From NCBI GenBank assembly GCA_951406725.2, contig OX597823.1:72230001-72294000 (forward strand): a DNA stretch of 64,000 nucleotides, in the 5' to 3' direction. Below the pieces are notes generated by a model, which worked only from the letters and a program-made list of their open reading frames with translations, did no database searches and was not told where the DNA came from. This DNA comes from Octopus vulgaris. Taxonomy: Eukaryota. Every line of letters starts with the position of its first letter. The stretch's first letter is position 1. The translations under genes and the position numbers were made by a program. This document shows, piece by piece, positions 4,861 to 53,020 of this stretch.

Positions 4861-4968
<108 letters not shown>

Positions 4969-5146
4969 TAATAAAGGGTTAAATGCAACAAGTTGCTCAA
5001 AACCACATACCGAAAATATTAGAAATAGCAGCCAAAATTGGTCAGTATTTCCTCTACTAGTAAAAAGTCTCCACAAACAAACAGAATTTGTAAGCTGTAT
5101 ATGGCAAAAAAAGGCAGAAAATAACGAAAACCCAGCCTCTGGATTA

Positions 5147-5204
5147 ATTATAGACGACTCGTTTCTGGATTAGAACCGAAGGTTCATTTCCTTGTCAATA
5201 TAAT
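5147..5204 (-). ncRNA. Type I hammerhead-like fold, variant core (mirror of 6110-6167)
   Basis: Reverse complement of 6110-6167. Confidence 0.6.
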
Positions 5205-6109
5205 ATTTCCTATAGATCTAGAAATGCTAGGGGAAAAAAACTTACCCGTTACACCAGTACGATCTGCTATATCGGACGGCTTAACGGAACTGCTAGCATT
5301 CGTACATCTATACCGACATGCGAATTCATATTTCCCTCCAAAATCTACCACGTGAGCCACAAAAACATTACCAACGAAACGAAAAATTCGGAGATAACTT
5401 GTAAGGGAGCAAAAGTATTCAATATTCAATAAAGGGTGGAATATAATTAATTTAATAAAATTAATCAATTTCACCTAGTAGATTTGTCGGTATGGAAAAG
5501 ACCATATTTGGTAAGGGTTATAATAATTATAATAAAGGGTTAAATGCAACAAGTTGCTCAAAACCACATACCGAAAATATTAGAAATAGCAGCCAAAATT
5601 GGTCAGTATTTCCTCTACTAGGTTTTCGTTATTTTCTGGCTTTTTTTGCCATATACAGCTTACAAATTCTGTTTGTTTGTGGAGACTTTTTACTAGTAGA
5701 GGAAATACTGACCAATTTTGGCTGCTATTTCTAATATTTACGGTATGTGGTTTTGAGCAACTTGTTGCATTTAACCCTTTATTATAATTATTATAACCCT
5801 TACCAAATATGGTCTTTTCCATACCGACAAATCTACTAGGTGAAATTGATTAATTTTATTAAATTAATTATATTCCACCCTTTATTGAATATTGAATACT
5901 TTTGCTCCCTTACAAGTTATCTCCGAATTTTTCGATTCGTTGGTAATGTTTTTGTGGCTCACGTGGTAGATTTTGGAGGGAAATATGAATTCGCATGTCG
6001 GTATAGATGTACGAATGCTAGCAGTTCCGTTAAGCCGTCCGATATAGCAGATCGTACTGGTGTAACGGGTAAGTTTTTTTCCCCTAGCATTTCTAGATCT
6101 ATAGGAAAT

Positions 6110-6167
6110 ATTATATTGACAAGGAAATGAACCTTCGGTTCTAATCCAGAAACGAGTCGTCTATAAT
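6110..6167 (+). ncRNA. Type I hammerhead-like fold, variant core UUGACAA
   Basis: Stem I ATTATA/TATAAT; core TTGACAA; stem II GGA..GAAC(CTTCG)GTTC..TCC; A-GAAA; stem III ACGA(G)TCGT; GUC site ending 6161. Confidence 0.6.
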
Positions 6168-6451
6168 TAATCCAGAGGCTGGGTTTTCGTTATTTTCTGC
6201 CTTTTTTTGCCATATACAGCTTACAAATTCTGTTTGTTTGTGGAGACTTTTTACTAGTAGAGGAAATACTGACCAATTTTGGCTGCTATTTCTAATATTT
6301 TCGGTATGTGGTTTTGAGCAACTTGTTGCATTTAACCCTTTATTATAATTATTATAACCCTTACCAAATATGGTCTTTTCCATACCGACAAATCTACTAG
6401 GTGAAATTGATTAATTTTATTAAATTAATTATATTCCACCCTTTATTGAAT

Positions 6452-6502
<51 letters not shown>

Positions 6503-17327: not shown

Positions 17328-17333
<6 letters not shown>

Positions 17334-17466
17334 TATATAGAAGGAGCTTCTACAGGACTAGAACTGTTTCATTCAAGAGAAATCTTCAGGAAGCTCAGTG
17401 CTTCCTGAAGATTTCTCTTGAATGAAACAGTTCTAGTCCTGTAGAAGCTCCTTCTATATAATAAAT
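17328..17466. repeat. Perfect 67-bp-arm palindrome carrying a hammerhead on each strand
   Basis: Arms 17328-17394 and 17400-17466, loop TCAGT; flanked by (TA)n. Confidence 0.9.
17400..17448 (+). ncRNA. Type I hammerhead ribozyme (mirror copy on minus strand 17346-17394)
   Basis: Stem I GCTTC/GAAGC; CTGAAGA; T-TTC(TCTT)GAA-T; GAAA; stem III ACAG/CTGT; GUA site ending 17443; AATAAA downstream. Confidence 0.75.
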
Positions 17467-31720: not shown

Positions 31721-31827
31721 ATATATAGATGTACATGTAATATGTACACATATATATACACATATATACATGCATAATATATCTACCCATACACACATAC
31801 GCACACACGCACACACACATACATAGG

Positions 31828-31960
31828 GGCAGGTGTGGCTGTGTGGTAACAAACTACGTTCCAAACACATGGTCCTGGGTTCAGTCCCACTGTGTGGTGA
31901 CTTGGCATATGTCTTCTGCTGTAGCCTCAGACCAACAAAAGCCTTCTCAGTGGATTTTGT
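31828..31960 (+). mobile_element. CORE-type SINE head
   Basis: gcaggtgtggctgtgtggtaa...gggttcagtcccactg. Confidence 0.75.
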
Positions 31961-32019
31961 ACATATATACAGACATACATACATATATATATACATGCAT
32001 ACGTACATATTCGGCATAA

Positions 32020-34775
32020 ACACTCTACCACTACAACTAATAACTGTTGGGAACACTTTCAAACCTGCCTTACATTCGAACCAGAATCTCAACGCCCGAG
32101 TTTTCCATCTCAAGTTAATCTCTCTCATGGAGCTCATACAAAAAGGGCAAGTATTTGGGCCCATACAATGTGACATGTACACAATCGAGTGGCAAAAAAG
32201 GGGCCTTCAACATGCTCATATCCTGCTTCGGCTCTCAGCGAAGATCAATTCCAATGACATCGACAACATAATCTCTGCAGAGCTTCCTGATCCAGCTTTA
32301 GACAAAGAACTATACGAAATAGTTAAGGCAAACATGGTACATGGTCCATGTGGGCGTGGATTCAACAAAAACTCACCATGCTTGAAGGACAGCATGTGTT
32401 CAAAAAAATTTCCAAGGAGGTTCCTACAAGAAACTCAGACAGGTGCTGATGGGTATCCATCATACAGACGCAGAAAACCAGAAGACAGAGGTTTCACAGC
32501 AACTATCGGACAGCACGATATTGATAATAGATGGATTGTTCCATACTGCCCACTCCTGTCAAAGACTTTCGATGCCCACATCAACGTTGAGTTTTGCAAC
32601 TCCGTTAAATCCATCAAGTACGTTTGCAAATATGTAAACAAGGGTTCTAACGCTGCAATGTTTGGACTTCAACAAGAATACTGCCAGGATGAGGTGACGC
32701 ATTATCAGGTGGAACGGTACATAAGTAGCAACGATGCTTTCTGGCGCATCTTTGGCTTTCCAATTCACCAACGACACCCCGCCATTCAACAGCTTGCAGT
32801 GCACCTGGAAAATGGTCAAAAAGTGTACTTCACCGATGCTAATGCTCTTCTGTTGGCAGAGGAACCAAGAGATAGCACGCTCACTGCATTCTTCAAGCTT
32901 TGTCAAGTGGATCCATTCGCTCAAACCTTGCTGTATCCACAGATTTCATCGTACTACACTTGGAATGGAAAAAATGGGCCCCACGGAAAGCAGGTCAAAA
33001 TGTTCATGGATACCCTGGCATTAAGTTTCACACTTGCCTTGGGTGCATCCCACTCAACAAGAGTGCTTCTACCTTCGTCTACTACTGCATGAGGTCAGGG
33101 CCAACGTCTTTCCAGGCCCTAAAAACCGTTCATGGACATGTCTGCACAACATACAGAGAAGCCTGCTATCGAAAAGGTCTGTTAGAAGATGGTGCACAAT
33201 GGGATGCAACTTTAGGAGAGGCTGCTTTATCACAATCACCTAAAAGTCTCAGGGCACTATTTGCACTATTACTACAGGCATGCGAACTGTGTGATCCGGC
33301 CACTGTATGGCTCAAATATAGAGACAACCTGGCTGAAGACTTTCAGCGCCAAGCTCAACTGCTCTATCCTGACATGGAGGATATCAGCTATGAAATCTAT
33401 AACAAAACACTCATTGACATTGAAGACAGAATTGCTAAACTGGGTGGAAATGAATTGTCGACGTATGGCCTGCCACAAGCATTCAGGTCAGGGTCAAATA
33501 GCCTTCCCACTGCTGTCATTCGTGAAACAACCTACGACACTCAAGCACTTTCAAAGTACATTGTTGAAAATGAGCCTAAAGTACTTCCGGACCAGCTGCA
33601 GGCCTACAGAGCTATTCTTAACAGTGTACGCCAACGCGAGGGACGAATCTTCTTCCTCGATGCTCCTGGAGGGACAGGAAAAATATTTATTACAAAGTTT
33701 CTCCTTGCAGAAGTTAGACAGCATCAGGACATTGCAGTAGCTGTAGCCTCCTCTGACATTACAGCTACTTTGTTACCCGGTGGCAGGACAACACACTCAA
33801 ATTTTAAACTCCCTCTCAATTTAGCAGCATACGAAACGCCTTCATGCAGCATCAACAGAAGCTCAGATCAGGGACAAGTACTTAAAATGTGTCATCTAAT
33901 TATCTGGGATGAGTGCGCTATTGCTCACAAGGGAGCTAGCTTTGGAAGCATTAGATAGAGCCCTGAATGACATCTGAGACTGCCAGGCTCCAATGGGAGG
34001 GGTAACGCTTCTGTTGTCAGGTGATTTCAGGCAAACTCTTCCTGTCATTTCGAAAGGCACTAGAGCAGATAAAGTCCAAGCATGCCTAAAGTCCTCTAAT
34101 CTGTGGCATCATGTTACAATCCTCAGTCTCACCACTAACATGACAGCTCAGCTACACGGCGACAAAATGTCCACAAAGTTTGCACAGGACATCTTGACAC
34201 TTGGTGAAGGCGATGCCTCTCGATGCTGCCGGACAAATGGAAGTGTTGTCATTTTCCTATGTTGTTAATTCTGTAGATGACCTCAAAAACAAAGTCTTTC
34301 CCAACTTCACACAAAACTACCAAAATCACAATTGACTGTGTGAAAGAGCAATATTAGCTCCAAAAAACGTCGCTGTTAACAAAATTAATCAACAGCTAAT
34401 GCATTCTCTTCCCGGCACTATACACACTTACAAGTCTGTTGATACAATTCCAGATATAAATGAAGTTATGAACTATCCTCCTGAATTTCTCAATTCACTG
34501 GAGCCTCCTGGACTACCACCACACATATTAGCACTTGAAGTTGGAACTCCTGTAATGCTACTCCGCAATCTGGAACCACCAAGACTTTGCAATGGAACAC
34601 GACTGGTGATAAAGAAAATGATGTCACACGTTATCGAGGCGATCATTCTTTCTGGATGTGGAAAAGGTGATGTCTTTATTCCAAGAATTCCTCTTTCTCA
34701 ATCAGGAGCAGAAATTCCATTTACATTCAGAGGACTGCAATTCCCCCTTCGTGTCAGCTCTGCCATATCCATCGT
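32020..34775 (+). pseudogene. Helitron Rep-Pif1 helicase (RepHel), truncated and frameshifted
   Basis: HUH motif EWQKRGLQHAHILL, YVCKYVNKG, Walker A FFLDAPGGTGK, LIIWDE, LLSGDFRQTLPV, LLRNL..LCNGTRL, QFPLR spread over four frames with stops. Confidence 0.95.
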
Positions 34776-34776
34776 C

Positions 34777-35095
34777 TATCTGCCTGCCAACTAAATTCTG
34801 AACTCACGTCGTTGGCTTGTCACCAGGAACCGATTTTCCTGTTGAATCCTACAGTAAAATTACCTTGTTGGGGAGGGGTTATGCCAATTTGAAAAAAAAT
34901 TTCTTTGAATTGTTGTGCTGCTGTTTGCCGTAGCTATTCAAAGTAAACATAAGTGAATTGTCGCCTGAAGTGGTCTACTTTGAAAAAAAAAAATGTTTGA
35001 CTGTCCTTGAGGTTGTTTTGTAACGAAAAAAAATGCAATTGTCTTTAAAATTATATACACCGTACATCTTTGAAAAATATTTGCTAAGCTTCAGT
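34777..35095 (+). repeat. ~320-bp direct repeat, copy 1 (copy 2 at 48693-49010)
   Basis: Colinear similarity from tatctgcctgc to ctaagcttcagta, both followed by (TA)n. Confidence 0.9.
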
Positions 35096-35097
35096 AT

Positions 35098-35133
<36 letters not shown>

Positions 35134-35134
<1 letters not shown>

Positions 35135-35791
35135 AGAAAAATAAGTTGGCTAGCAGCGAGCTGTTTTGCCTCATACCGAAGGAATTAGAAATGGCAGTCA
35201 AAGACCGTTTTTTCATTTCTATAAGTGGAGATTCCAAAAACGAATGCCCTTGCGGCTCACATACACAAAACCGGAGTGGCAAATATACGAATTCAGTCAC
35301 TTACCGTTAATAGCGAACACGGTGTTTCTGGATCACAAACATATAAAAAATAGGGGAGTTTGAATTCCTTCTTCAGCGCTATATTCGTTAGCTTTATCAA
35401 ATGCCACCAGCCCTCACTTCTGACCCAGCGACATCAGATAGTGGGGGAAGTGCGCAGATGCTAAAACCAAGTAACGACTGGGAACGTAAATTTTCCCTCC
35501 AAAATTCTGCCATGCGCGCCTTCTGGGTAATCGTAATGGAATGAGGAATCCACATGGTAATACAATAAAAATGGTAAATAATTTTCCTGTGGTTTTTCAT
35601 GTAACCAACAATTATTTACCGGTAAATTTCGGTATGTAAATACGACAAAATAATTGTCAAGACCTTTGTAAGGTTCAGTATATAGTAAAGAAAAATAAGT
35701 TGGCTAGCAGCGAGCTGTTTTGCCTCATACCGAAGGAATTAGAAATGGCAGTCAAAGACCGTTTTTTCATTTCTATAAGTGGAGATTCCAA
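35134..35791 (-). mobile_element. Hammerhead-containing 554-bp monomer repeat (unit C), ~1.2 copies, in (TA)n
   Basis: aagaaaaataagttggc...gattccaaa at 35134 and 35688; no RT-like ORF. Confidence 0.85.
35310..35382 (-). ncRNA. Type I hammerhead ribozyme
   Basis: Minus strand: ATAGCG CTGAAGA A GGA..CAAAC(loop)GTTTG..TCC A GAAA CAC(C)GTG TT CGCTAT; GUU site. Confidence 0.85.
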
Positions 35792-36433
35792 ATATATATA
35801 TACATATACACATATGTATATATATACATATATGTAAGTATTTATATATATATATATATATATTTCATCGAAAATTTTCACCAAAAATTTTTCGAAAATT
35901 TTCACCGGTAATTTTATCCAAAATGTTTCGAAAATTTTACCAAAATTTTCACCAAAAAAATTTTCACCAAAAATTTTCGAAAAGTTGCCCCAAAGATTTT
36001 TTACCGAAAATTTTTCGAAAATTTTGCCCCAAAATTTTACGAAAATTTTCCGAAAATTTTCAACGAAAATTTTCCCCAAAAAATTTTCCCAAAAAATTTT
36101 TAGAAAAGTTTTGCCGAAAATTTTCCCCAAAAATATTTCCAAAATTTTCCTCAAATATTTTTCGAAAATTTTCATCGAAAATTTTCCCCAAAAATTTTTC
36201 GAAAATTTCCACCGAAAATTTTACCCAGTAGACCACTGTGTTTACTTTGAATAGCTACGGCAAACGTTGTAAACCATTCAGCTATGCTAGTTCTCTTTCA
36301 ACTGGAATTTAACCCCTGACCAACCCTAAATTATTGGACATTTTGGTCGTGGCCATCCCGCTTTGATGTAAATCCAATACTGCATTGTTCAGTTTGACTT
36401 TAAAAAAAAATCGGCTGCTATTTCTAACAGTTC

Positions 36434-36483
<50 letters not shown>

Positions 36484-36652
36484 AGCGGGATCAGCCATCT
36501 GAATGTGGCTAGGGACAGGGCGGGGTGGTGGGGGTGTTACTGATGCATTTAGCCCCAGGCGACTATTGACGTCACCAGAAGAGCCGACACCATCACGGTG
36601 TCCTTGCTGGCCTGCAAAGGGAGATCAGCCTCCCCGAAGATACGGATGCTAC

Positions 36653-36693
36653 ACACGGACCGGTTTCGAGGTAATCGCCTCTCGTCAGCGCAT
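36653..36693 (-). ncRNA. Minimal type I hammerhead ribozyme
   Basis: ATGCG CTGACGA GAGG(CGATTA)CCTC GAAA CCGG TC CGTGT. Confidence 0.85.
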
Positions 36694-36934
36694 GGCAAGC
36701 ACCGTTCTTCGTTGAGGGACTTCCTGTACAGGCCAGATATATATAGATTTTCACAGTAACCACAGGCACTGGCGTAGAAAATCTGTTCGAAAACAATAAT
36801 AAATCTCTGAGCGAGGTATAAACAGTAACTGCTCTTTAATATAAGCGGGATCAGCCATCTGCATGTGGCTAGGGACAGGGCGGGGTAGTGGGGGTGTTAC
36901 TGATGCAGTCCCTCAACGAAGAACGGTGCTTGCC

Positions 36935-36975
36935 ATGCGCTGACGAGAGGCGATTAGCTCGAAACCGGTCCGTGT
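36935..36975 (+). ncRNA. Minimal type I hammerhead ribozyme
   Basis: ATGCG CTGACGA GAG(GCGATTAG)CTC GAAA CCGG TC CGTGT; palindromic ACCGGT stem III; GUC site ending 36970. Confidence 0.85.
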
Positions 36976-37556
36976 GTAGCATCCGTATCTTCGGGGAGGC
37001 TGATCTCCCTTTGCAGGCCAGCAAGGACACCGTGATGGTGTCGGCTCTTCTGGTGACGTCAATAGTCGCCTGGGGCTAAATGCATCAGTAACACCCCCAC
37101 CACCCCGCCCTGTCCCTAGCCACATTCAGATGGCTGATCCCGCTTATATTAAAGAGCAGTTACTGTTTATACCTCGCTCAGAGATTTATTATATATATAT
37201 ATATATATAAATATATATATTTCACCAAAAATTTTAACCAAAAATTTTTCGAAAATTTTCACCAACAATTTTCTCCCAAAAAATCCCCAAATATTTTTGG
37301 GAAACTTTCACCGAAAATTTTAGCGAAAAATTTTACGATAATTTTCACCCAAAATTTTTCGAAAACTTTTACCGAAAATTTCAAAAATTTTTCGAAAGTT
37401 TTCAGAAACTTTTACCGATAAATTTTTCAAAAATTTCCTCAAAAAATTTTCACCGAAAATTTTCCCCAAAAATTTTTCGAAAATTTTCACCAAAAATTTT
37501 TCGAAAATTTTCCTTAAAACTTTTCGAGAATTTACCACAAAAAAGTTTTCGAAAAG

Positions 37557-37730
37557 AGCCAGCGGGGCCAAAATCACAAAATATGGGAACCCACGGTGCC
37601 AAAATCACAAAATAAGGAAAGCCATACTTTGTGATTTTGGCACCGCAAGGTTTCCATACTTTGTGATTTTGGCACCGCTGGCTTTCCATACATTGTGATT
37701 TTGGCACCGCTGGTTTTCCATACTTTCCAT
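37557..37730. repeat. 32-bp minisatellite foldback
   Basis: cagcggtgccaaaatcacaaagtatggaaagc units reverse orientation near 37620; longer copy at 46861-47170. Confidence 0.85.
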
Positions 37731-38224
37731 AATTTTCTCTAAAAATTTTTCGAAAATTTTCACCAACAATTTTCAGAAAATTTTCACCGAAAATTTTACC
37801 CAAAAATTTTTCCAACATTTTCACCGACAATTTTCCCCAAAAATTTTTCGAAAATTTTCACCAAAAAATCTTTCGAAAATTTTCCGTAAAAATTTTCCGT
37901 AAAAAGTTTTCGAAAATTTTCACTGAAAATTTTACCAAAAAATTTTTCGAAAATTTTCCCCAAAAATCTTTCGAAGATTTTTTGGGAAAATTTTCGGTGA
38001 AAATTTTTCGAAAATTTTGGCCCAAAATTTTTCGAAAATTTCTGCCGAAAATTTTTCCAATAAATTTTTCGAAAATTTTCCCCAAAAATTTTCCAGAAAA
38101 ATTTTTTGAAAATTTTCACTGAAAAATTTACAGAAAAATTTTTCGAAAATTTTCACTGAAAAATTTACCCAAAAATTTTTCGAAGATTTTCCCCAAAATT
38201 TTAAAAAAATTCTTTGAAAATTTA

Positions 38225-38678
38225 GTTGATTTGTTGTTTCTGAAAACTTATGATCGAATGTTAGATGGTATATAGAGGAAATTTATTTGTAAAATGAGAG
38301 GAAAATCGTATAGTATAAGCCATAGCCACCCATAATAAAAAGGAATACGGGTGGGGTACTTGTCGCGTAGACTGGATCCGGTGCGCGCATCTGTGCATCC
38401 GCGCTAGCCATCGATCCTATAGCGACTTGCGTATGCAAAACATTTTTTTTTGAAAGTAGACCACTACTAGTAGACCACTGTGTTTACTTTGAAAAGCTAC
38501 GGCAAACGTCGTTAACCATTCAGCTGCGCTCGTTCTCTTTCAACTGGAATTTAACCCCTGACCAACCCTAAATTATTAGACATTTTGGTCGTGGCCATCC
38601 CGCTTTGTTGTAAATCCAATACTGCATTGGTCAGTTTGACTTTTAAAAAAAATCGGCTGCTATTTCTAACAGTACGTA
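38225..38678 (+). repeat. ~450-bp spacer block repeated between satellite arrays
   Basis: Near-identical copies at 39453-39905 and 43211-43663, partial at 36227-36437 and 48221-48490. Confidence 0.9.
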
Positions 38679-38690
38679 TATATATACATT

Positions 38691-38732
<42 letters not shown>

Positions 38733-38768
38733 CACACATATATATATATATATATATATACATATATG

Positions 38769-38806
<38 letters not shown>

Positions 38807-41239
38807 TATATATTTCACCGAGAATCTTAACCAAACATTTTTCGAAAATTTTCACCGATAATTTTCTCAAAAAACTTTTCGAAAATTTTACCCAAGATTT
38901 TCACCGAAAATTTTCTCGAAAAAAATCCCCAAAAATTTTTGGAACACTTTCACCGTAAATTTTAACCAGAAATTTTACGTTAATTTTCCGCCAAGATTTT
39001 TCGAAAACTTTTGCCGAAAATTTTCCCCAAAAATTTTTCGAAAATTTTCATTGAAACTTTTACCAAAAAATTTTTGGAAAACTTTCACCGAAAATTTAAA
39101 CCAAAAATTTTACGATAATTTTCCGCCAAAATTTTTCGAAAACTTTTGCCGAAAATTTTCACCGAAAATTTTTGCCGAAAATATTCCCAAAAAATTTTTC
39201 GAAAATTTTCACTGAAAATTTTACCAAAAACTTTTTCCAAAATTTTCACCGAAAATTTTCCCTAACAATTTTTTGAAAATTTTTACGGAAAATTTTCCCC
39301 AAAAATTTTTCGAAAATTTTCGCCCAAAATTATTCGAAAATTTTCCCTAAAAATTTTCGAATATTTTCTCAAAAAATTTTCCACAAAAATTTTTCGAAAA
39401 TTTTCACTGAAAAATTTACCCAAAAATTTTTGAAAAATTAAAAAAAAATTTTGTTGATTTGTTGTTTCTGAAAACTTATGATCGACTGTTAGATGGTATA
39501 TAGAGGAAATTTATTTGTAAAATGAGAGGAAAATCGTATGGTATAAGCCATAGCCGCCCATAATAAAAAGGAATACGGGTGGGGTACTAGTCGCGTAGAC
39601 TGGATCCGGTGCACGCATCCGTGCATCCGCGCTAGCCAGTCGATCCTATAGCGACTTGCGTATGCAAAACATTTTTTTTAAAGTAGACCACTACTAGTAG
39701 ACCACTGTGTTTACTTTGAATAGCTACGGCAAACTTCGCTAAGCATTCAGCTATGCTCGTTCTCTTTCAACTGGAATTTAACCCCTGACCAACCCTAAAT
39801 TATTAGACATTTTGGTCGTGGCCATCCCGCTTTGTTGTAAATCCAATACTGCATTGTTCAGTTTGACTTTAAAAAAAATCGGCTGCTATTTCCAACAGTT
39901 CGTATATATACACATTTATGTATATATATATATATATATATACATATATACATATGTATATGTATATATACATATATGTGTGTGTGTATATATATATATA
40001 TAAATATATATATTTCACCAAAAATTTTTCCCAAAAATTTTTCCCAAATTTTCACCGATAATTTTCTCAAAAACTTTTCAAAAATTTTACCCAAGATTTT
40101 CACCGAAAATATTCTCGAAAAAAATGCCCAAAAATTTTTGGAAACTTTCACCGAAAATTTTAACAAAAACATTTTACGATAATTTTCCCCCAAAATATTT
40201 CGAAAACTTTTGCCGAAAATTTTACCACAAAATTATTCGAAAATTTTTGGAGAAAATTTTCACCGAAAAATTTCCCCAAAAATGTTACGAAAATTTTCCC
40301 CAAATGTTTTTCGAAAATTTTCACCGAAAATTTTACCCAAAGATTTTCACCAAAAATTTTCAGTTATGAAATTTTCAGTTATGGAAAATTTTCACCGAAA
40401 AGTTTACCCAAAAATTTACACCAAAAATTTTCAGAAAATTTTCACTGAAAAGTTTAACCAAAAATTTTTCCAAAATTTTCAGAAAATTTTGCCCAAAAAT
40501 TTTTCAAAAATTTTCACCGATAATTCTCTCCAAAGATTTTTCGAAAATTTTACCCAAGATTTTCACCGAAAATTTTCCCGAAAAATTTGCCCAAAAAATT
40601 TTGGGAAAACATTCACCGTAAATTTTAACCAAAAATTTTACGATAAAAATTTTGCATAAAAAGTTTTCGAAAATTTTCACCAAAAATTTTCCGAAAATTT
40701 TCAACGATAAAATATACCCAAAAATTTTTCGAAAATTTTCACTGAAAATTTTACCACAAAATTATACGAAAATTTTCACCGAAAATTTTATCCAAAATGT
40801 TTTCGAAAATTTTCACCGAAAAATTTCCCCTAAAATTTTTCGAATATTTTCCCCAAATATTTTTCGAAAATTTTCACCAAAAATTTTTCCAAAATTTTAA
40901 CCGAAAATTTTGCCCAAAAATTTTTCCAAAATTTTCACTGACAATATTCCCTAAAAATTTTTCGACCATTTTCACCGAAAATTTTCCCCCCAAATTTTTT
41001 TCGAAAATTTTCACCGAAAATTTTCACCAAAAATTTTTCGAAAATTTTCACTGAAAAATTTAGCCAAAAACTTTTCGAAATTTACAAAAAAATATATATG
41101 TATATATAGATTTGCATATATATATACATTACACTTACACACACTTCAAATTTACTTGCCATACATACAACTACGCACACTGGACACACACACACACTAC
41201 CACTCAACACACACACTGGCACGTTACTTACACCCCCAC

Positions 41240-41735
41240 CCTTTCCCTCCTTCCCTTCTTCCCTCCTTCCTCTTCTTTTTACCACTGACCACTCACTTGA
41301 GACTTGCTATGTCAACTACTGTTCGCCCTACCACACACACTTACATACAGACGCACGCACTAACATATACATATATTTTTTGTTTTTTATCTCGCCTCAC
41401 ACACACATACACACACGCACACGCACACACTCACACATACATACACATCATTTTTGTTACCAACCTTCCTGTCTCCACTCTTTTGGCTTTGAAAACCTAC
41501 TTTGCCCTTGTTATCCAAAACTTCCGGCCTTTCAGCATGTGTACTTCGTAAACACCAGTCGCGTTTTTTTTCCCTCTGTTCGCCCACATCAGGATCTTTC
41601 TTTCTTCTTTCTTCCTTCTCTTATGTTTCCGACGAAGAGCTCCGCTTCCATTTTCCTGAGCGCCTAATAATAATAATACTGTAATTGTTCCACGTGTTGT
41701 TGTTTTTTCTGTTTTCCCGTTTGGATTAACCTTAT
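41240..41735 (+). repeat. Pyrimidine-rich repeat, duplicated at 44372-44865
   Basis: Near-identical ~495-bp copies, both ending at (TA)n. Confidence 0.85.
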
Positions 41736-41750
41736 ATATATATATATATG

Positions 41751-42596
41751 TCAACAATTGAGGGTAAAATTAATTAATTAATCAATTTCACCAAGTATTC
41801 AGTATGCAAAGGGACCATTTAAGGCGAATTCAAATTATTACATTATATAAAAGGGCTTAGTAAAATAAATTACTTTGCCGCATACTGAACTCATTAGAAA
41901 TAGCAGCTAAAAAAACTTATTTAAAGCTATTTCCAATACTTAAAGAAAATCTCTCTCATATAGTGTTTGCTCCATTCAACTCACGAAAGTATGAGGGTAG
42001 AAACATTAAAAAATCAAATGCAAAGGTTATTTGAGAACGTACGTTTCAAGATTAGTCAGAATCGACACTTCTATCATCAGCTCAGAACTCCCTGGTTTGG
42101 ATTTGAAAGCACTGAAAGTCGGAGCATACCTTTTCGGCTTCCCATCGCCTCTGAAGATCTACTCGAAACTAACAGTGCCAGCAAATTCAAATATGCAAGC
42201 GAACAATTTCTGCTCTCCCCCTTCCACCAGCGTGGGTTAAAATCAGCAAACAACATGCTTTTTTTCGGTAAAATCCGAGGCATTAAAATAGAGGGAGATG
42301 AATTATAATTTCAACAATTGAGGGTAAAATTAATTAATTAATCAATTTCACCAATTATTCAGTATGCAAAGGGACCATTTAAGGCGAATTCAAATTATTA
42401 CATTATATAAAAGGGCTTAGTAAAATAAATTACTTTGCCGCATACTGAACTCATTAGAAATAGCAGCTAAAAAAACTTATTTAAAGCTATTTCCAATACT
42501 TAAAGAAAATCTCTCTCATATAGTGTTTGCTCCATTCAACTCACGAAAGTATGAGGGTAGAAACATTAAAAAATCAAATGCATGTTGTTTGCTGAT
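41751..42596 (-). mobile_element. Hammerhead-containing 560-bp monomer repeat (unit B), ~1.5 copies, in (TA)n
   Basis: tcaacaattgagggtaaaat at 41751 and 42311; ends with a 17-bp inverted piece (42580-42596 is the reverse complement of 42242-42258). Confidence 0.88.
42032..42084 (-). ncRNA. Type I hammerhead ribozyme
   Basis: Minus strand: TGAG CTGATGA T-AGA..GTC(GATTCT)GAC..TCT-T GAAA C(GTAC)G TT CTCA; GUU site. Confidence 0.82.
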
Positions 42597-42626
42597 ATAT
42601 ATATATATATATATGCATGTTGTTTG

Positions 42627-42700
<74 letters not shown>

Positions 42701-43678
42701 TATATATGAAAATATATATACTTTACCGAAAATTTTAACTAAAAATTTTCGAAAATTTTCACCGATAATTTTCTCCAAAAATTTTTCAAAAATTTTAACC
42801 AAGATTTTCACCGAAAATTTTCTCGAGAAGAATCCCCAAAAATTTTTGGAAAACTTTCACCGAAAATTTTAACCAAAAATTTTACGATAATTTTCCGCCA
42901 AAATTTTTCGAAAACTTTTGCGAAAATTTTACCCAAAATTTTTCGAAAATTTTCACTGAAAATTTTTGCCGAAAATATTCCCCAAAAATTTTTCGAAAAT
43001 TTTCACTGAAATCTTTAACAAAAACTTTTTCCAAAATTTTCACCGAAAATTTTCCCTAACAATTTTTCGAAAACTTTTACGGAAAATTTTCCCCAAAAAT
43101 TTTTCGAAAATTTTTCGAAAATTTTCTCCAAAAATTTTCCACAAAAATTTTTCGAAAATTTTCACTGAAAAATTTACCCAAAAATTTTTGAAAAATTAAA
43201 TAAAAATTTTGTTGATTTGTTGTTTCTGAAAACTTATGATCGACTGTTAGATGGTATATAGAGGAAATTTATTTGTAAAATGAGAGGAAAATCGTATGGT
43301 ATAAGCCATAGCCGCCCATAATAAAAAGGAATACGGGTGGGGTACTAGTCGCGGAGACTGGATCCGGTGCGCGCATCCGTGCATCCGCGCTAGCCAGTCG
43401 ATCCTATAGCGACTTGCGTATGCAAAACATTTTTTTTAAAGTAGACCACTACTAGTAGACCACTGTGTTTACTTTGAATAGCTACGGCAAACTTCGCTAA
43501 GCATTCAGCTATGCTCGTTCTCTTTCAACTGGAATTTAACCCCTGACCAACCCTAAATTATTAGACATTTTGGTCGTGGCCATCCCGCTTTGTTGTAAAT
43601 CCAATACTGCATTGTTCAGTTTGACTTTAAAAAAAATCGGCTGCTATTTCCAACAGTTCGTATATATACACATTTATG

Positions 43679-43710
<32 letters not shown>

Positions 43711-45327
43711 TACATATATATATGTATATATACATATATGTGTGTGTGTATATAAATATATATAAATATATATATTTCACCAAAAATTTTTCCCAAAAAT
43801 TTTTCCCAAATTTTCACCGATAATTTTCTCAAAAAACTTTTCAAAAATTTTACCCAAGATTTTCACCGAAAATATTCTCGAAAAAAATGCCCAAAAATTT
43901 TTGGAAACTTTCACCGAAAATTTTAACAAAAACATTTTACGATAATTTTCCCCCAAAATATTTCGAAAACTTTTGCCGAAAATTTTACCACAAAATTATT
44001 CGAAAATTTTTGGAGAAAATTTTCACCGAAAAATTTCCCCAAAAATGTTTCGAAAATTTTTCCCAAATGTTTTTCGAAAATTTTCACCAAAAATTTTCAG
44101 TTATGGAAAATTTTCACCGAAAATTTTACCCAAAAATTTTCACCAAAAATTTTCAGAAAATTTTCACTGAAAGGTTTAAACAAAAATTTTTCCAAAATTT
44201 TCAGAAAATTTTGCCCAAAAATTTTTCAAAAAATTTTCACCGATAATTCTCTCCAAAGATTTTTCGAAAATTTTACCCAAGATTTTCACCGAAAATTTTC
44301 CCGAAAAATTTGCCCAAAAAATTTTGGGAAAACATTCACCGTAAATTTTAACCAAAAATTTTACGATAAAATTTCCCTCCTTCCCTTCTTCCCTCCTTCC
44401 TCTTCTTTTTACCACTGACCACTCACTTGAGACTTGCTATGTCAACTACTGTTCGCCCTACCACACACACTTACATACAGACGCACGCACTAACATATAC
44501 ATATATTTTTTGTTTTTTATCTCGCCTCACACACACATACACACACGCACACGCACACACTCACACATACATACACATCATTTTTGTTACCAACCTTCCT
44601 GTCTCCACTCTTTTGGCTTTAAAAACCTACTTTGCCCTTGTTATCCAAAACTTCCGGCCTTTCAGCATGTGTACTTCGTAAACACCAGTCGCGTTTTTTT
44701 CCCTCTGTTCGCCCACATCGGGATCTTTCTTTCTTCTTTCTTCCTTCTCTTATGTTTCCGACGAAGAGCTCCGCTTCCATTTTCCTGAGCGCCTAATAAT
44801 AATAATACTGTAATTGTTCCACGTGTTGTTGTTTTTTCTGTTTTCCCGTTTGGATTAACCTTATATATATATATATATATATCTATGTATATACATATTC
44901 TCTAAATTTTTCGATAATTTTCACCGAAAATTTTCCCCAAAAATTTTTCGAAAATTTTCCCCAAATATTATTCGAAAATTTTCACCAAAAATTTTCCTCA
45001 AAAATTTTCACCAAAAATTTTCAGATAATTTTCACGGTGAAAATTTTCGAGAAATTTTTTGGTAAAAGTTTCAATGAAAATTTTCGTAAAATTTTTGGGG
45101 AAAATTTTCGGCAAAAGTTTTCGAAAAATTTTGGGGGAAAATTATCGTAAAATTTTTGGTTAAAATTTTCGGTGAAAGTTTTCCCAAAATTTTTGGGGAT
45201 TCTTCTCGAGAAAATTTTCGGTGAAAATCTTGGTTCAAATTTTTGAAAAATTTTTGGAGAAAATTATCGGTGAAAATTTTCGAAAATTTTTAGTTAAAAT
45301 TTTCGGGAAAGTATATATATTTTTATA

Positions 45328-45422
<95 letters not shown>

Positions 45423-45627
45423 CATATATATTTTTTTGAAAATTTTCGAAAAGTTTTTGTCTAAATTTTTCAGTGAAAATTTCCGAAAAATTTTGGGGGA
45501 AAATTTTCCGTGAAAATTTTCGAGAAAAATTTGGGAAAATTTTCGAAAAATTTTTGGAGAAAATTATCGGTGAAAATTTTCGAAAATTTTTAATTAAAAT
45601 TTTCGGGAAAGTATATATATTTTTATA

Positions 45628-45728
<101 letters not shown>

Positions 45729-46116
45729 CATATATATTTTTTTGAAAATTTTCGAAAAGATTTTGTCTAAATTTTTCAGTGAAAATTTCCGAAAAATTTT
45801 GGGGGAAAATTTTCCGTGAAAATTTTCGAGAAAAATTTGGGGAAAATTTTCGAAAAATTTTTGGAGAAAATTATCGGTGAAAATTTTCGAAAATTTTTAG
45901 TTAAAATTTTCGGTAAATCTTTGGAAAAATTTTTGGGCAAAATTTTCTGTGAAAACTTTGGAAAAATTTTTGGGTAAAACACCCAAATTTTTCGAAAATT
46001 TTCCCCAAATTTTTCTCGAAAATTTTCACCGAAAATTTTCCCCCAAAATTTTTCGGAAATTTTCACTGAAAAATTTAGACAAAAACTTTTCGAAAATTTT
46101 CAAAAAAAATATATAT

Positions 46117-46251
<135 letters not shown>

Positions 46252-46460
46252 TATATATAAAAATATATATATTTTCCCGAAAATTTTAACTAAAAATTTT
46301 CGAAAATTTTCACCGATAATTTTCTCCAAAAATTTTTCGAAAATTTTCCCCAAATTTTTCTCGAAAATTTTCACGGAAAATTTTCCCCAAAATTTTTCGG
46401 AAATTTTCACTGAAAAATTTAGACAAAAACTTTTCGAAAATTTTCAAAAAAATATATATG

Positions 46461-46547
<87 letters not shown>

Positions 46548-46860
46548 TATATATAAAAATATATATACTTTCCCGAAAATTTTAACTAAAAATTTTCGAA
46601 AATTTTCACCGATAATTTTCTCCAAAAATTTTTGAAAAATTTGAACCAAGATTTTCACCGAAAATTTTCTCGAGAAGAATCCCCAAAAATTTTGGGAAAA
46701 CTTTCACCGAAAATTTTAACCAAAAATTTTACGATAATTTTCCCCCAAAATTTTTCGAAAACTTTTGCCGAAAATTTTTCCCAAAAATTTTACGAAAATT
46801 TTCATTGAAACTTTTACCAAAAAATTTCTCGAAAATTTTGACGGAAAATTTTCCCCAAAT

Positions 46861-47170
46861 TATGGAAAGCCAGCGGTGCCAAAATCTTGAAGTATGGAAA
46901 GCCAGCCGTGCCAAAATCACAAAGTATGGAAACCCAGCTGTGATGAAATCGCAAATTATGGAAAGCTAGTGGTGCTAAAATCACAAAGTATGGAAAGCCA
47001 GCGGTGCCAAAATCACAAGATATGGGAAGACAGCGGTGCCAAAATCACAAAATAAGGAAAGCCATACTTTGTGATTTTGGCACCGCTAGTTGTCCATACT
47101 TTGTAATTTTTGCACCCCTGGCTTTCCATACTTTGTGATTTTGGCACCGCTAGTTTTCCATACTTTCCAT
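46861..47170. repeat. 32-bp minisatellite foldback
   Basis: About six forward units then three inverted units, switching near 47062. Confidence 0.85.
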
Positions 47171-48692
47171 AATTTTCTCTAAAAATTTTTCGAAGATTTT
47201 CACCAAGAATTTTTAGAAAACTTTTACTGAAAAGTTTTACCCAAAAATATTTCCAAAAATTTCACCGAAAATTTTACCCAAAAATTTTTCCAAAGTTTTC
47301 ACCGACAATTTTCTTAAAAATTTTTCGAAAATTTTCACCTAAAATCTTTCGAAAATTTTCCAAAAAGTTTTCGAAAATTTTTACCAAAAATTTTCCGAAA
47401 ATTTTTAACCGATAAAACACTGAAAATTTTGCCACAAAATTATTCGAAAATTTTACCCAAAAATGATTCGGAAATTTTCCCGAAAATTTTCGAAAATTTT
47501 CGATAATTCTCTCCAAAAATTTTTCGAAAATTTTAACCAAGATTTTCACCGAAAATTTTCTCCAAAGATTTGCCCAAAAATTATTCGAAAACTTTCACAG
47601 AATATTTTAACCAAAAATTTTACGATAATTCCGCAGAAATTATTCGAAAACTTTCACCGAAAATTTTAACCAAAAAGTTTACGATAATTCTCCCCCAAAA
47701 TTTTTCGAAAACATTTGCCGAAAATTTTCCCCAAAAATTTTTCGAAAATTTTCACTAAAACTTTTACCAAAAAATTCTTCGAAAATTTTCCCTAAAAATT
47801 TTCAATAAAATGTTTTCGAAAATTTTCACCAAAAATTTTCTCCGATAAAATATACCCAAAAATCTTTCGAAAATTTTCACTGAAAATTTTACCACAAAAT
47901 TATTGGAAAATTTTCACCGAAAATATTCTCCAAAATTTTTCGATAATTTTCACCGAAAATTTTCCCCCAAAATTTTTCGAAAATTTTCCCCAAATATTAT
48001 TCGAAAATTTTCACCAAAAATTTTCAGATAATTTTCACTGAAAGTTTTACCCAAAAATTTTTTCAATGTTTTCACAGAAAATTTTGCCCAAAAATTTTTC
48101 CAAAATTTTCACTGACAATTTTCCCCAAAAATTTTTCGAAAATTTTCACTGAAAAATTTACCACAAAAATATTTCGAAGATTTTCCCCAAAAACTTTTGA
48201 AAAATGTTTTGAAAAATTTTGTTGATTTGTTGTTTCTGAAAACTTATGATCGACTGTTAGATGGTATATAGAGGAAATTTATTTGTAAAATGAGAGGAAA
48301 ATCGTATGGTATAAGCCATAATAAAAAGGAATACGGGTGGGGTACTAATCGCGTAGACTGGACCCGGTGCGCGCATCTGCGCTAGCCAGCCGATTCTATA
48401 GCGACTTGCGTATGCAAAACATTTTTTTTTTAAGTAGACCACTACTAGTAGACCACTGTGTTTACTTTGAATAGCTACGGCAAACTTCGTTTGTTTTTAA
48501 CCAGACGTAAAGTAACCCTTTACTTCATAGAAATGTTTTATTTCTACGTGGGGGCAATTTGTTTATTATAAGTTTACGTTGAAGAGACTTGGTCGTTGAC
48601 AGGAGCCTCATAAGTTAACGCAGTGTACCATTTCATACGAGGCAATTAGTGTTATCTTCGTCTGTGATCTGTCACTGTACTACTTTTCCTTT

Positions 48693-49108
<416 letters not shown>

Positions 49109-49111
49109 TTA

Positions 49112-49144
<33 letters not shown>

Positions 49145-49172
49145 CACATATGTATATATATATACATATATG

Positions 49173-49203
<31 letters not shown>

Positions 49204-50074
49204 TATATACATGGGTACTTTTCTACAAGCGTGGTCCCGGTGCTAGCTAATCGTGACTAGTCGATCTTACGAAGACTATATAACGCGAGTGCGCGACTAA
49301 AAATCACACTCGCATGCGCTAGACATGTATGAGGTTTTTTTTAACAAATGATCTTTTTTAAACAAAGAAAATAAAACAAAGTAAGTAATTTGTTTTGTTG
49401 AGTCTTTTATTTACTTTGTTTTAGACAAAATCCATTTTTTTATTTATATATTCAGACATTATATACATATATTATTATGCGCGCACCTGTTAATTTGCAT
49501 ACTTGCGCTTGGTAGTCGTTAAAAGATCGACCAGTTACGACGGATTAGCACGAGTGCGCGCACCGGGACCATTGTTTTTGAGTAGCACCTTTGGTAGAGT
49601 ATGGAGGACTTGTTGGAGAAAATTTTCGAAAAATTTTTGGGGAAAATTTTGTGAAAATTTTCGAAAAATTTTTGTGTGAATTTTTCGGCAAAAATTTTCG
49701 AAAAATTGTTGGTGAAAATTTTTGGGTAAAATTTTCGAAAAATTTCTGGCTAAAATTTTCGGAAAATTTTTGGTGAAAATCTTTGGGTAAAATTTTCGGT
49801 GAAAATTTTCGAAAAATTTCTGGGTAACATTTTCGGTGATAATTTTCGGAAAATTTTTGGGTAAAATTTTCGGCAAAAGTTTTCGAAAAATTGTTGGTGA
49901 AAACTTTTGGGTAAAATTTTCTGTGAAAATTTTCGAAAAATTTCTGGGTAACATTTTCGGAAAATTTTTGGGTAAAATTCTTGGTGAAAATTCTCGAAAA
50001 ATTTTTGGAAGATTTTCCCCCCAAAATTTTGAAAATTTTTCGAAATATACTATAATTATATATATACATATATT

Positions 50075-51843: not shown

Positions 51844-52950
51844 ACAAAATTATAAAAACACATGATTTTAAAGGCATATTTAGTCTAAAGATGTCATTGA
51901 GCTTAGCGACACATCTTATAAATTCTGGTACTGGAAGACCTTAGCTTCTAGTTATAAGATTTATGGATATTATTTCGGTAACCAAGAGTATTTTAATAAT
52001 ATTATTACTGATACCTGGTCATATTAAACTACTTTTGCGAATCCTTAATTCTAATGACAGTTACCGATGGTTGTAATTTTATTCAGCTTGTTTCTAAACT
52101 TATCCGTTATTTTTATAGTTGCTTCATCCGCCTTAGTAATGGTCTTTATAATTCTTTATAATTCTTAGAAATTCTCTTAATATTATCTTGATACTCCTCG
52201 TAGTTGTGATCTGAAATGATTATTCAGCCTTCATAATTTTAATTGATTTGGTTAATAGAAACACTATGAAACAGTTTTTCAGATTTTATCGGGCATATCG
52301 GTTTTGTTTTCCTTCTATATTACTTCTAGGCTTTGAACCCATAACTTTATGACAGTTATATAAGTCATATTTCTATATTTCAATATTTAATTTTATATAT
52401 TTTTATATTGATACTGTTTATAGCCTGAACTACTTTCATTAGCCTAGTATACATATTTATTTGTTCTCTTTTGCAAACACTGTCTTCCCGCGTTGTTCTA
52501 TTCCGTTGCTATTTAAATATTTATAGATTATGATTACTGACACTGTGTCTATGGTTATCTCAATATATTTATAATGTTTTCCCTTATTCTTTCCCCTCCT
52601 TTTGTCCGCCCTCGTCTTCTGAAATTTCGAGACACCTTTGCTATTCTTTGCGTTTTATTTTTAAGTTATTTTCCCTGAATAGTAATCAGCTGGATCACTC
52701 TTAAGAAAAGCTAATATTCTATTAGTTCTGAAAAAATGAGTTGGAGTACTTTAATGAAGAAGAAATGAAATAGATGAATAAGTAATGACGGAATATATTA
52801 ACCATTTGAAATACCAAACAATATAACTCAGTAACTAATTTTTTGAGAATTACACCGGCAATTATTTTGTCTAAGGTTTTGAAAGGGATCATTGTCATGC
52901 AAGGTCGCCGGCAATCTGCTTGTGTGTATATATATATATATATATATATA

Positions 52951-53020
52951 GCTGCTATTTCTAGTAAGTTCAGTATGTGGCAAAGTAATTTATTTTACTA
53001 AGCCCTAATTATATAATATA
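52951..53020 (+). repeat. Fragment of a unit-B-like monomer in (TA)n
   Basis: gctgctatttctagtaagttcagtatgtggcaaagtaatttattttactaagccct matches the reverse complement of ~41852-41907. Confidence 0.85.

Follow-up and report, generated by a model that had tools for sequence, protein, structure and literature searches.

Three repeat units (A, B and C) in a 64,000-nucleotide stretch of the Octopus vulgaris genome (the window; C10:72230001-72294000 of 2.8 Gb) are non-LTR retrozymes, i.e., hammerhead-bearing, non-autonomous Penelope-like elements (PLEs) of ~555–560 bp. They share an RNA domain of six helices, and their copies end in (TA)n at two discrete positions, one in a loop of this domain and one directly after its last helix, which are combined one per arm in inverted insertions. 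The domain probably serves as a docking and two-site initiation platform for a PLE reverse transcriptase (RT). Whereas the element class and the tail are already known, there appears to be no previous description of the fold, of a tail three times as long, or of the pairing rule in quantified form.

The assignment to the retrozymes is based on both the composition and the anatomy of the insertions. Self-BLAST yielded repeat periods of 561 (A), 560 (B), and 554 bp (C); all three are partial tandems ending in (TA)n, and self-comparison revealed an additional inverted left arm in A. Each of the tandem units carries a type I hammerhead, and no open reading frame of at least 150 aa was found in unit A, in unit B, or along the body of C; PLE proteins had no match in the window (tblastn). 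As in PLEs, partial tandems are truncated at the 5' end and adjoined by an inverted copy (42 inverted insertions among 111 groups), with scattered 5' ends. Genome searches with A, B, and C returned 2,354, 1,445, and 1,098 candidates, respectively, of which 40 each were scored; these copies reach identities of 98–100% and occur as dispersed singles, arrays (up to seven tandem units), and inverted pairs. Monomers are 99.6–99.9% identical inside one array (in B also between opposite arms) versus 96.2–99.0% between loci, which is consistent with one template source, circle or multimer alike, for both arms. Helentron-type termini, considered because of a nearby Helitron fragment, were ruled out by the hammerheads, the variable 5' truncation, and the tandem monomers; decayed fragments of a Helitron Rep/PIF1 helicase (PF14214, PF05970) are located at 31827-34800 (+).

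The non-LTR retrozymes of other animals likewise consist of tandem units a few hundred bases long that each contain a type I hammerhead and no open reading frame; they too are dispersed in thousands of copies and related to PLE terminal repeats (PMC7229834; 10.64898/2026.07.22.740005). In the octopus, however, the insertion anatomy itself is of the PLE type. The available text of these papers includes neither a cephalopod example nor a conserved domain other than the hammerhead nor a map of start sites. Li et al. (2026; bioRxiv, 10.64898/2026.07.22.740005) argued that retrozymes use PLE enzymes and called the mechanism open; the insertions in the octopus provide direct anatomical evidence, beyond shared ancestry, that animal retrozymes move by PLE machinery.

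The hammerheads of all three units are minimal type I ribozymes with a palindromic stem III, whereas stem I differs in sequence across families but keeps its pairing. The palindromic stem III, the unpaired base before stem II, and the U3-A8 core of unit A, a variant reported for schistosome PLEs, are also found among the minimal hammerheads of metazoan PLEs (PMC4209133); that paper, in its available text, deals with the ribozyme and not with a downstream domain. The 5' ends coincide with the hammerhead cut in 11 of 37 copies of C (3.1 expected), whose sampling favoured near-full copies, and do not cluster there in A (4/37) or B (5/44). Most of unit B is covered by contigs of four sequencing runs guessed to be RNA (as were 14 of 19 run rows), which carry no information on ends, strand, or circles. 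In one such run (X3), A>G is the commonest contig difference between 41700 and 42620 (30 of 71 places), which may point to editing.

Table 1. Positions of retrozyme units, domain helices, hammerheads, and related elements (window coordinates unless a contig is given).
Feature	Position	Strand	Details
A domain	6255-6453	+	P0 6255-6261/6393-6399; P1 6262-6268/6287-6293; P2 6301-6308/6381-6388; P2a 6310-6337; P2c 6363-6374; P3 6400-6440
A sites		+	site-1 linker ~6338-6352; site-2 junction to (TA)n ~6453
A upstream direct repeat	5618-5898	+	period 561, second domain copy; self-BLAST 98.6% to 6179-6459
A inverted left arm	4957-5621	-	one full domain copy; terminates in (TA)n at site 1
A minimal type I hammerhead	6110-6165	+	core 6116-6161; U3-A8 core variant, palindromic stem III; predicted cut after 6161
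B domain	41752-41941	-	ends at site 2 in (TA)n; P1 41936-41926/41904-41894; P2 41889-41880/41807-41798; P2a 41879-41854; P2c 41825-41814; P3 41792-41763
B upstream direct repeat	42304-42582	-	period 560, second domain copy; self-BLAST 98.9%
B minimal hammerhead	42036-42086	-	core 42080-42036
B-like stump, 72 bp	52949-53020	+	within (TA)n; ends at site 1
C full domain copy (5' repeat)	35560-35775	-	P1 35775-35768/35747-35740; P2 35733-35726/35636-35629; P2a 35724-35702; extra hairpin 35676-35661; P2c 35658-35644; P3 35620-35573
C 3' repeat	35125-35238	-	shortened at site 1, joined to (TA)n
C minimal hammerhead	35310-35382	-	core 35376-35316
Family F	36477-37192		hammerhead core 36940-36970; inverted insertion, 360-bp unit, tail ~41 nt, 2,218 candidates
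Autonomous PLE loci	L171 (C16:20834500-20842500), L172-L183		two overlapping frames: ORF1 and 781-aa RT/GIY-YIG

The first-pass annotation had proposed a three-helix domain downstream of the hammerhead. Its helices 1–3 (here P1, P2, and P3) are real: all quoted strands of A, B, and C lie at the positions given for them, and all three helices are present in the free minimum-free-energy (MFE) folds of A, B, and C. Nevertheless, the domain comprises six helices, because P0, P2a, and P2c had been overlooked. In an alignment of 23 rows, P0 closes a three-way junction with P1 and P2; the loop enclosed by P2 holds two hairpins, P2a and P2c, with a U-rich linker between them, and P3 follows. The P0/P1 region is rearranged in C. 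The domain is located downstream of the hammerhead in A and B, whereas the full copy of C in the window lies upstream of its hammerhead and has a downstream position only in the tandem unit.

The 3' ends of the copies are remarkably restricted with respect to this fold. They join (TA)n either at site 1, in the loop of helix 2, or at site 2, just after helix 3, which together account for 105 of 118 BLAST-defined ends of A, B, and C (site 1/site 2/other: A, 12/21/4; B, 15/27/2; C, 21/9/7; the choice of query biases the proportion of ends per site and leaves the discreteness of the sites unaffected). Among 249 distinct motif copies from all families, the end lies at site 1 in 73, at site 2 in 64, and elsewhere in 9, and the other 103 run on past both. 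The earlier observation that the right arm of A and unit B end a few nucleotides after helix 3 is borne out (11–15 nt), but the left arm of A, unit C, and the B-like stump end at site 1. Although each monomer contains 18–22 TAT/ATA patches, only two are in use. The junctions are located ~9–23 nt 3' of a hairpin (P2a or P3; the site-1 sample of A is small and noisy, n = 9) and mostly overlap the TA run by 2–6 nt; both linkers are predicted to be unpaired (0.60–0.94 versus 0.38–0.41 overall). Despite differences in linker and loop length among families, the ends keep homologous structural positions.

The two sites are also combined in a regular manner. Among 42 head-to-head insertions, 11 have an unclassifiable end; the 31 with both ends classed comprise 29 pairs of site 1 with site 2, two pairs of site 2, and none of site 1 (p = 2e-7 against 0.5). 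A tail is therefore present on one end only in 29 of 31 cases. A tail on one end only is known from PLEs, where it measures 30–40 bp (PMC8557442, PMC3846280); those of the three units are longer (about 97 nt in A, 96 nt in B, and 119 nt in C).

Two discrete ends would also be left by two cuts in the RNA, if a second self-cleaving motif or a nuclease site produced two 3' ends that are then copied end-on, and the single-stranded, AU-rich linkers are plausible nuclease sites. However, this scenario must contend with the numerous copies that read through both sites and with the long arrays, and cutting does not explain why each insertion receives one end of each kind. The conserved bases sit within helices and not in a loop core, and no ribozyme family matches the domain, which makes RNA processing extremely unlikely as the origin of the ends. 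Of the functions suggested in the first-pass annotation, nothing was found in support of a second catalytic motif or a ligation aid, whereas a role as an RT/endonuclease docking site, the binding itself being putative, is supported by the location of the two fixed 3' ends, one within the domain and the other directly behind it. That the structure belongs to no named family agrees with the Rfam searches, which yielded no match over the domains among the matches listed (150 of 154, E ≤ 1; only microsatellite-driven, miRNA-like ones) and none at the gathering threshold in five loci; the silence of Rfam is weak evidence, because it missed all three hammerheads as well.

The closest parallel is Poseidon_Ac of the anole, for which Frangieh et al. 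(2024) reported that the ends of the tail correspond to two internal RT starts, which lie in a stem loop downstream of the hammerhead and were obtained directly from RNA in vitro; the protein is a predicted dimer, and the start site did not differ between strands, which counts against the strand-specific priming proposed below (PMC11167929). By analogy, the ends described here would represent RT start sites. In both systems, a minimal hammerhead is followed downstream by two discrete 3' ends, the target is AT-rich, and the start region is structured. They differ in tail length (96–119 nt versus 30–40) and in the non-coding nature of the octopus elements, whose starts would be located in U-rich linkers of a six-helix domain common to dozens of clusters rather than in an AC-rich stem loop within an ORF, match the target by 2–6 nt, and are paired one per arm (PMC11167929). 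A match to a described transposon terminal structure, which the first-pass annotation had named as an argument against its reading, thus exists for the two ends, which correspond to the known PLE tail (PMC11167929, PMC8557442, PMC3846280), whereas no conserved fold at PLE start sites was found in the openly accessible papers searched.

An RNA platform for initiation would operate as follows. A PLE RT/GIY-YIG protein supplied in trans, presumably as a dimer, would dock on the domain of a possibly circular template and start cDNA synthesis internally, using two modules that each consist of a hairpin (P2a or P3) and a 9–23-nt, U-rich single strand whose end matches (TA)n by 2–6 nt. Cleavage of the (TA)n tract by the protein would provide two DNA 3' ends, one acting as primer at site 1 and one at site 2. 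Extension of the two cDNAs in the 5' direction and their head-to-head joining would give rise to an inverted insertion with a tail on one arm only.

More tentatively, a dimeric PLE RT might hold the two hairpin-anchored single strands so that each strand of the (TA)n break is served by one active site, and the parasites themselves may have invented the six-helix form. If so, every insertion would be primed twice internally in a fixed and asymmetric manner, the six-helix form would be absent from the autonomous elements whose enzyme the parasites capture, and the PLE tail would for the first time have a defined RNA architecture underlying it. In telomerase RNA and the 3' UTR of R2, the RNA is held on the RT by a helix located 5' of a single-stranded template. 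The likeness of the octopus domain to these RNAs would be one of layout, and it differs by having two start sites on one RNA; PLE RTs are the closest relatives of telomerase. In the literature available, the choice of internal starts by PLEs, the one-armed tail, and the mobilisation of retrozymes are called open. These questions can be tested in the octopus, where a specific fold is available in dozens of natural variants, together with two mapped sites and the strict rule by which they are paired; an intact PLE protein is encoded in the same genome.

The thermodynamic stability of the domain leaves the strand open. Folding z-scores against 100 dinucleotide shuffles are −3.5 (A), −6.5 (B), and −4.3 (C) in sense and −4.9, −3.6, and −3.1 in antisense orientation; since these values are comparable, the strand is not fixed by stability alone. 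Antisense folds are equally stable in about half of 16 families. This would accommodate a mechanism at the level of DNA, in which hairpins formed by the cDNA, or by an intermediate with inverted repeats, are recognised by the GIY-YIG endonuclease, which cleaves both sites when the insertion is resolved, with the inverted arm arising by self-priming. Endonuclease-mediated resolution has been proposed as a source of the tail (PMC8557442), as has self-priming (PMC3846280), and the mechanism likewise predicts a single tail per insertion. Three observations argue for RNA instead. In P2 of cluster 3, which is abundant (22 of 381 motif matches), G-U pairs occur in tandem, and these would turn into A-C mismatches in the cDNA; A>G changes exceed T>C changes in paired columns (38:24) but not in unpaired ones (42:62; p = 0.01); and both starts of Poseidon_Ac arose in vitro on the RNA directly (PMC11167929). 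A DNA-level origin of the two sites is therefore considered unlikely. The excess of G-U pairs (about 50 versus 26 events) is due solely to the A>G changes (C>T 22 versus G>A 30) and is explained by A-to-I editing of the helices as well as by selection, both of which require RNA helices of the sense strand.

The core motif that links helix 1 with helix 2 occurs 14,321 times in the genome as an exact match (reversed control, 0), and 381 core-motif matches in the extracted loci form 32 clusters, including many singletons and a few junction artefacts. Pattern matches in metagenomes (33) and viruses (6) are due to chance, as 0 of 39 match model R1. In the MAFFT alignment, 85.6% of the cells pair, which was reached by none of 500 shuffles and compares with 36–48% for slid partners. 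Paired columns have half the substitution rate of unpaired columns (1.74 versus 3.4 per column). Much of this conservation is plain sequence conservation. RNAalifold recovered only P2, P2a, and one pair of P2c from the MAFFT alignment, incompletely because of misalignment; double changes, counted on the same alignment with its misaligned C-clade columns, are absent from the nine pairs of P1 and occur once in P2. The P2c and P3 hairpins are retained with different sequences in the C clade and in cluster 3 (by eye).

A tree-aware test was conducted with 39 rows, obtained from the best 79 of 150 model-aligned matches by reduction to 44 rows of <96% identity and removal of five redundant or junction sequences; foreign 5' parts were masked, as were P0, the 5' strand of P1, and P3 in seven C-clade rows. 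Only 1 of 51 pairs is significant (a C-G/U-A change in P2a, E = 0.005) and another, in P2c, is borderline (E = 0.09); testing all pairs yielded no significant pair. Deep covariation is weak and underpowered, with more divergent copies lying beyond the sample. The compensatory changes reported previously fared differently. The A-U to G-C swap in helix 1 of C is a register shift, in which the 5' strand of C aligns with the 5' strand of P0 in sister families, and the absence of double changes from P1 leaves no compensatory change in this helix. The G-C to A-U swap in helix 2 is real (G-C 25, A-U 7, A-C 3, and G-U 2 of 39 rows) but borderline on the tree (p = 0.054), with both changes being CpG transitions. 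A selected RNA structure, as claimed in the first-pass annotation, is thus supported by the conservation of the helices, but by covariation in a single pair.

Weak covariation is also what one would expect if the fold served RNA stability, circularisation, or transcription, and the ends were set only by a local pyrimidine-plus-UAU sequence. The local sequence is alike at both ends of A, B, and C and also precedes the ends of an autonomous PLE family, and whole monomers are highly structured (z about −4). By contrast, the ends hold their structural position while linker and loop lengths vary, as reflected in the different tails of B and C, and the remotely homologous family G (2,276 candidates; e.g., L043:1245-1470, L281-L284) keeps two ends with different hairpins, which renders control by local sequence alone very unlikely. 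Family G matches model R1 with about 30 bits and retains P2, P2a, P2c, and P3 with largely replaced sequence, including two double changes in P2 (by eye); no hammerhead was found in the truncated copies examined.

A candidate helper for the initiation platform is an autonomous PLE of the Neptune/Nematis type, which is abundant and intact in the same genome. Its 781-aa frame has matches to RVT_1 and GIY-YIG and a CxxC linker as in Neptune/Nematis but no relative in the PDB; it overlaps with an ORF1 of about 430–480 aa that belongs to no known family. The element has a U3-A8 hammerhead and, within its terminal repeat, CCAAT-, CRE-, and TATA-like repeats. Like A, B, and C, it targets (TA)n and has two ends, which are separated by about 38 nt and follow the one-per-arm pattern: 20 loci selected because they extend beyond site 1 all terminate at site 2 or close to it, and the six inverted arms all stop at site 1. 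In the MFE fold, a motif ahead of site 1 is predicted to pair with the start of ORF1 in a long helix around both ends; none of the 20 loci reaches into the ORF. The end of the element does not match R1, but a loosely similar short motif is located ~20 nt before site 1.

An autonomous partner with the domain itself was not found by GIY-YIG search (150 of 6,136 candidates scored, 30 of those extracted, plus flanks), tblastn, or R1, which counts against the platform reading. The 20 PLE-coding loci contain no full R1 match except for copies of A, B, or C nested in three of them (best other match, 24.3 bits). PLE coding fragments adjoining the motif in five loci were rejected as partners, as they appear to be separate insertions; one locus (L097) consists of two insertions in one TA tract.

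Further elements in the window and the genome share parts of this organisation. The MFE fold of family F is a miniature of the domain topology, with a weak helix that closes around site 1 and, ahead of site 2, a small hairpin. A 14-mer of the 3' strand of helix 1 has 28,701 matches in the genome (control, 19); 16 of 30 loci examined (e.g., L192, L195-L201) are older, decayed repeats without TA ends, which are possibly ancient relatives of family G. A repeated unit that ends in (TA)n 9 nt after the helix-1 3'-strand motif occurs at 36227-36483, 38469-38726, 39696-39950, and ~43400-43660, surrounded by 10-bp A/T-rich satellite arrays (35860-50050) that contain inverted and nested duplications. 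A near-perfect palindrome of 139 bp is present at 17328-17466. At the 5' junction of B (42583-42625, −), two short (~15 nt) inverted pieces of the monomer lie between TA runs, and seemingly direct insertions may bear a minute second arm. Downstream of site 2, a G-rich motif is found in A (~5955-5995, +), C (35485-35515, −), and partly in B (42215-42235, −), which we take to be loosely similar to a Pol III A box and thus a possible internal promoter.
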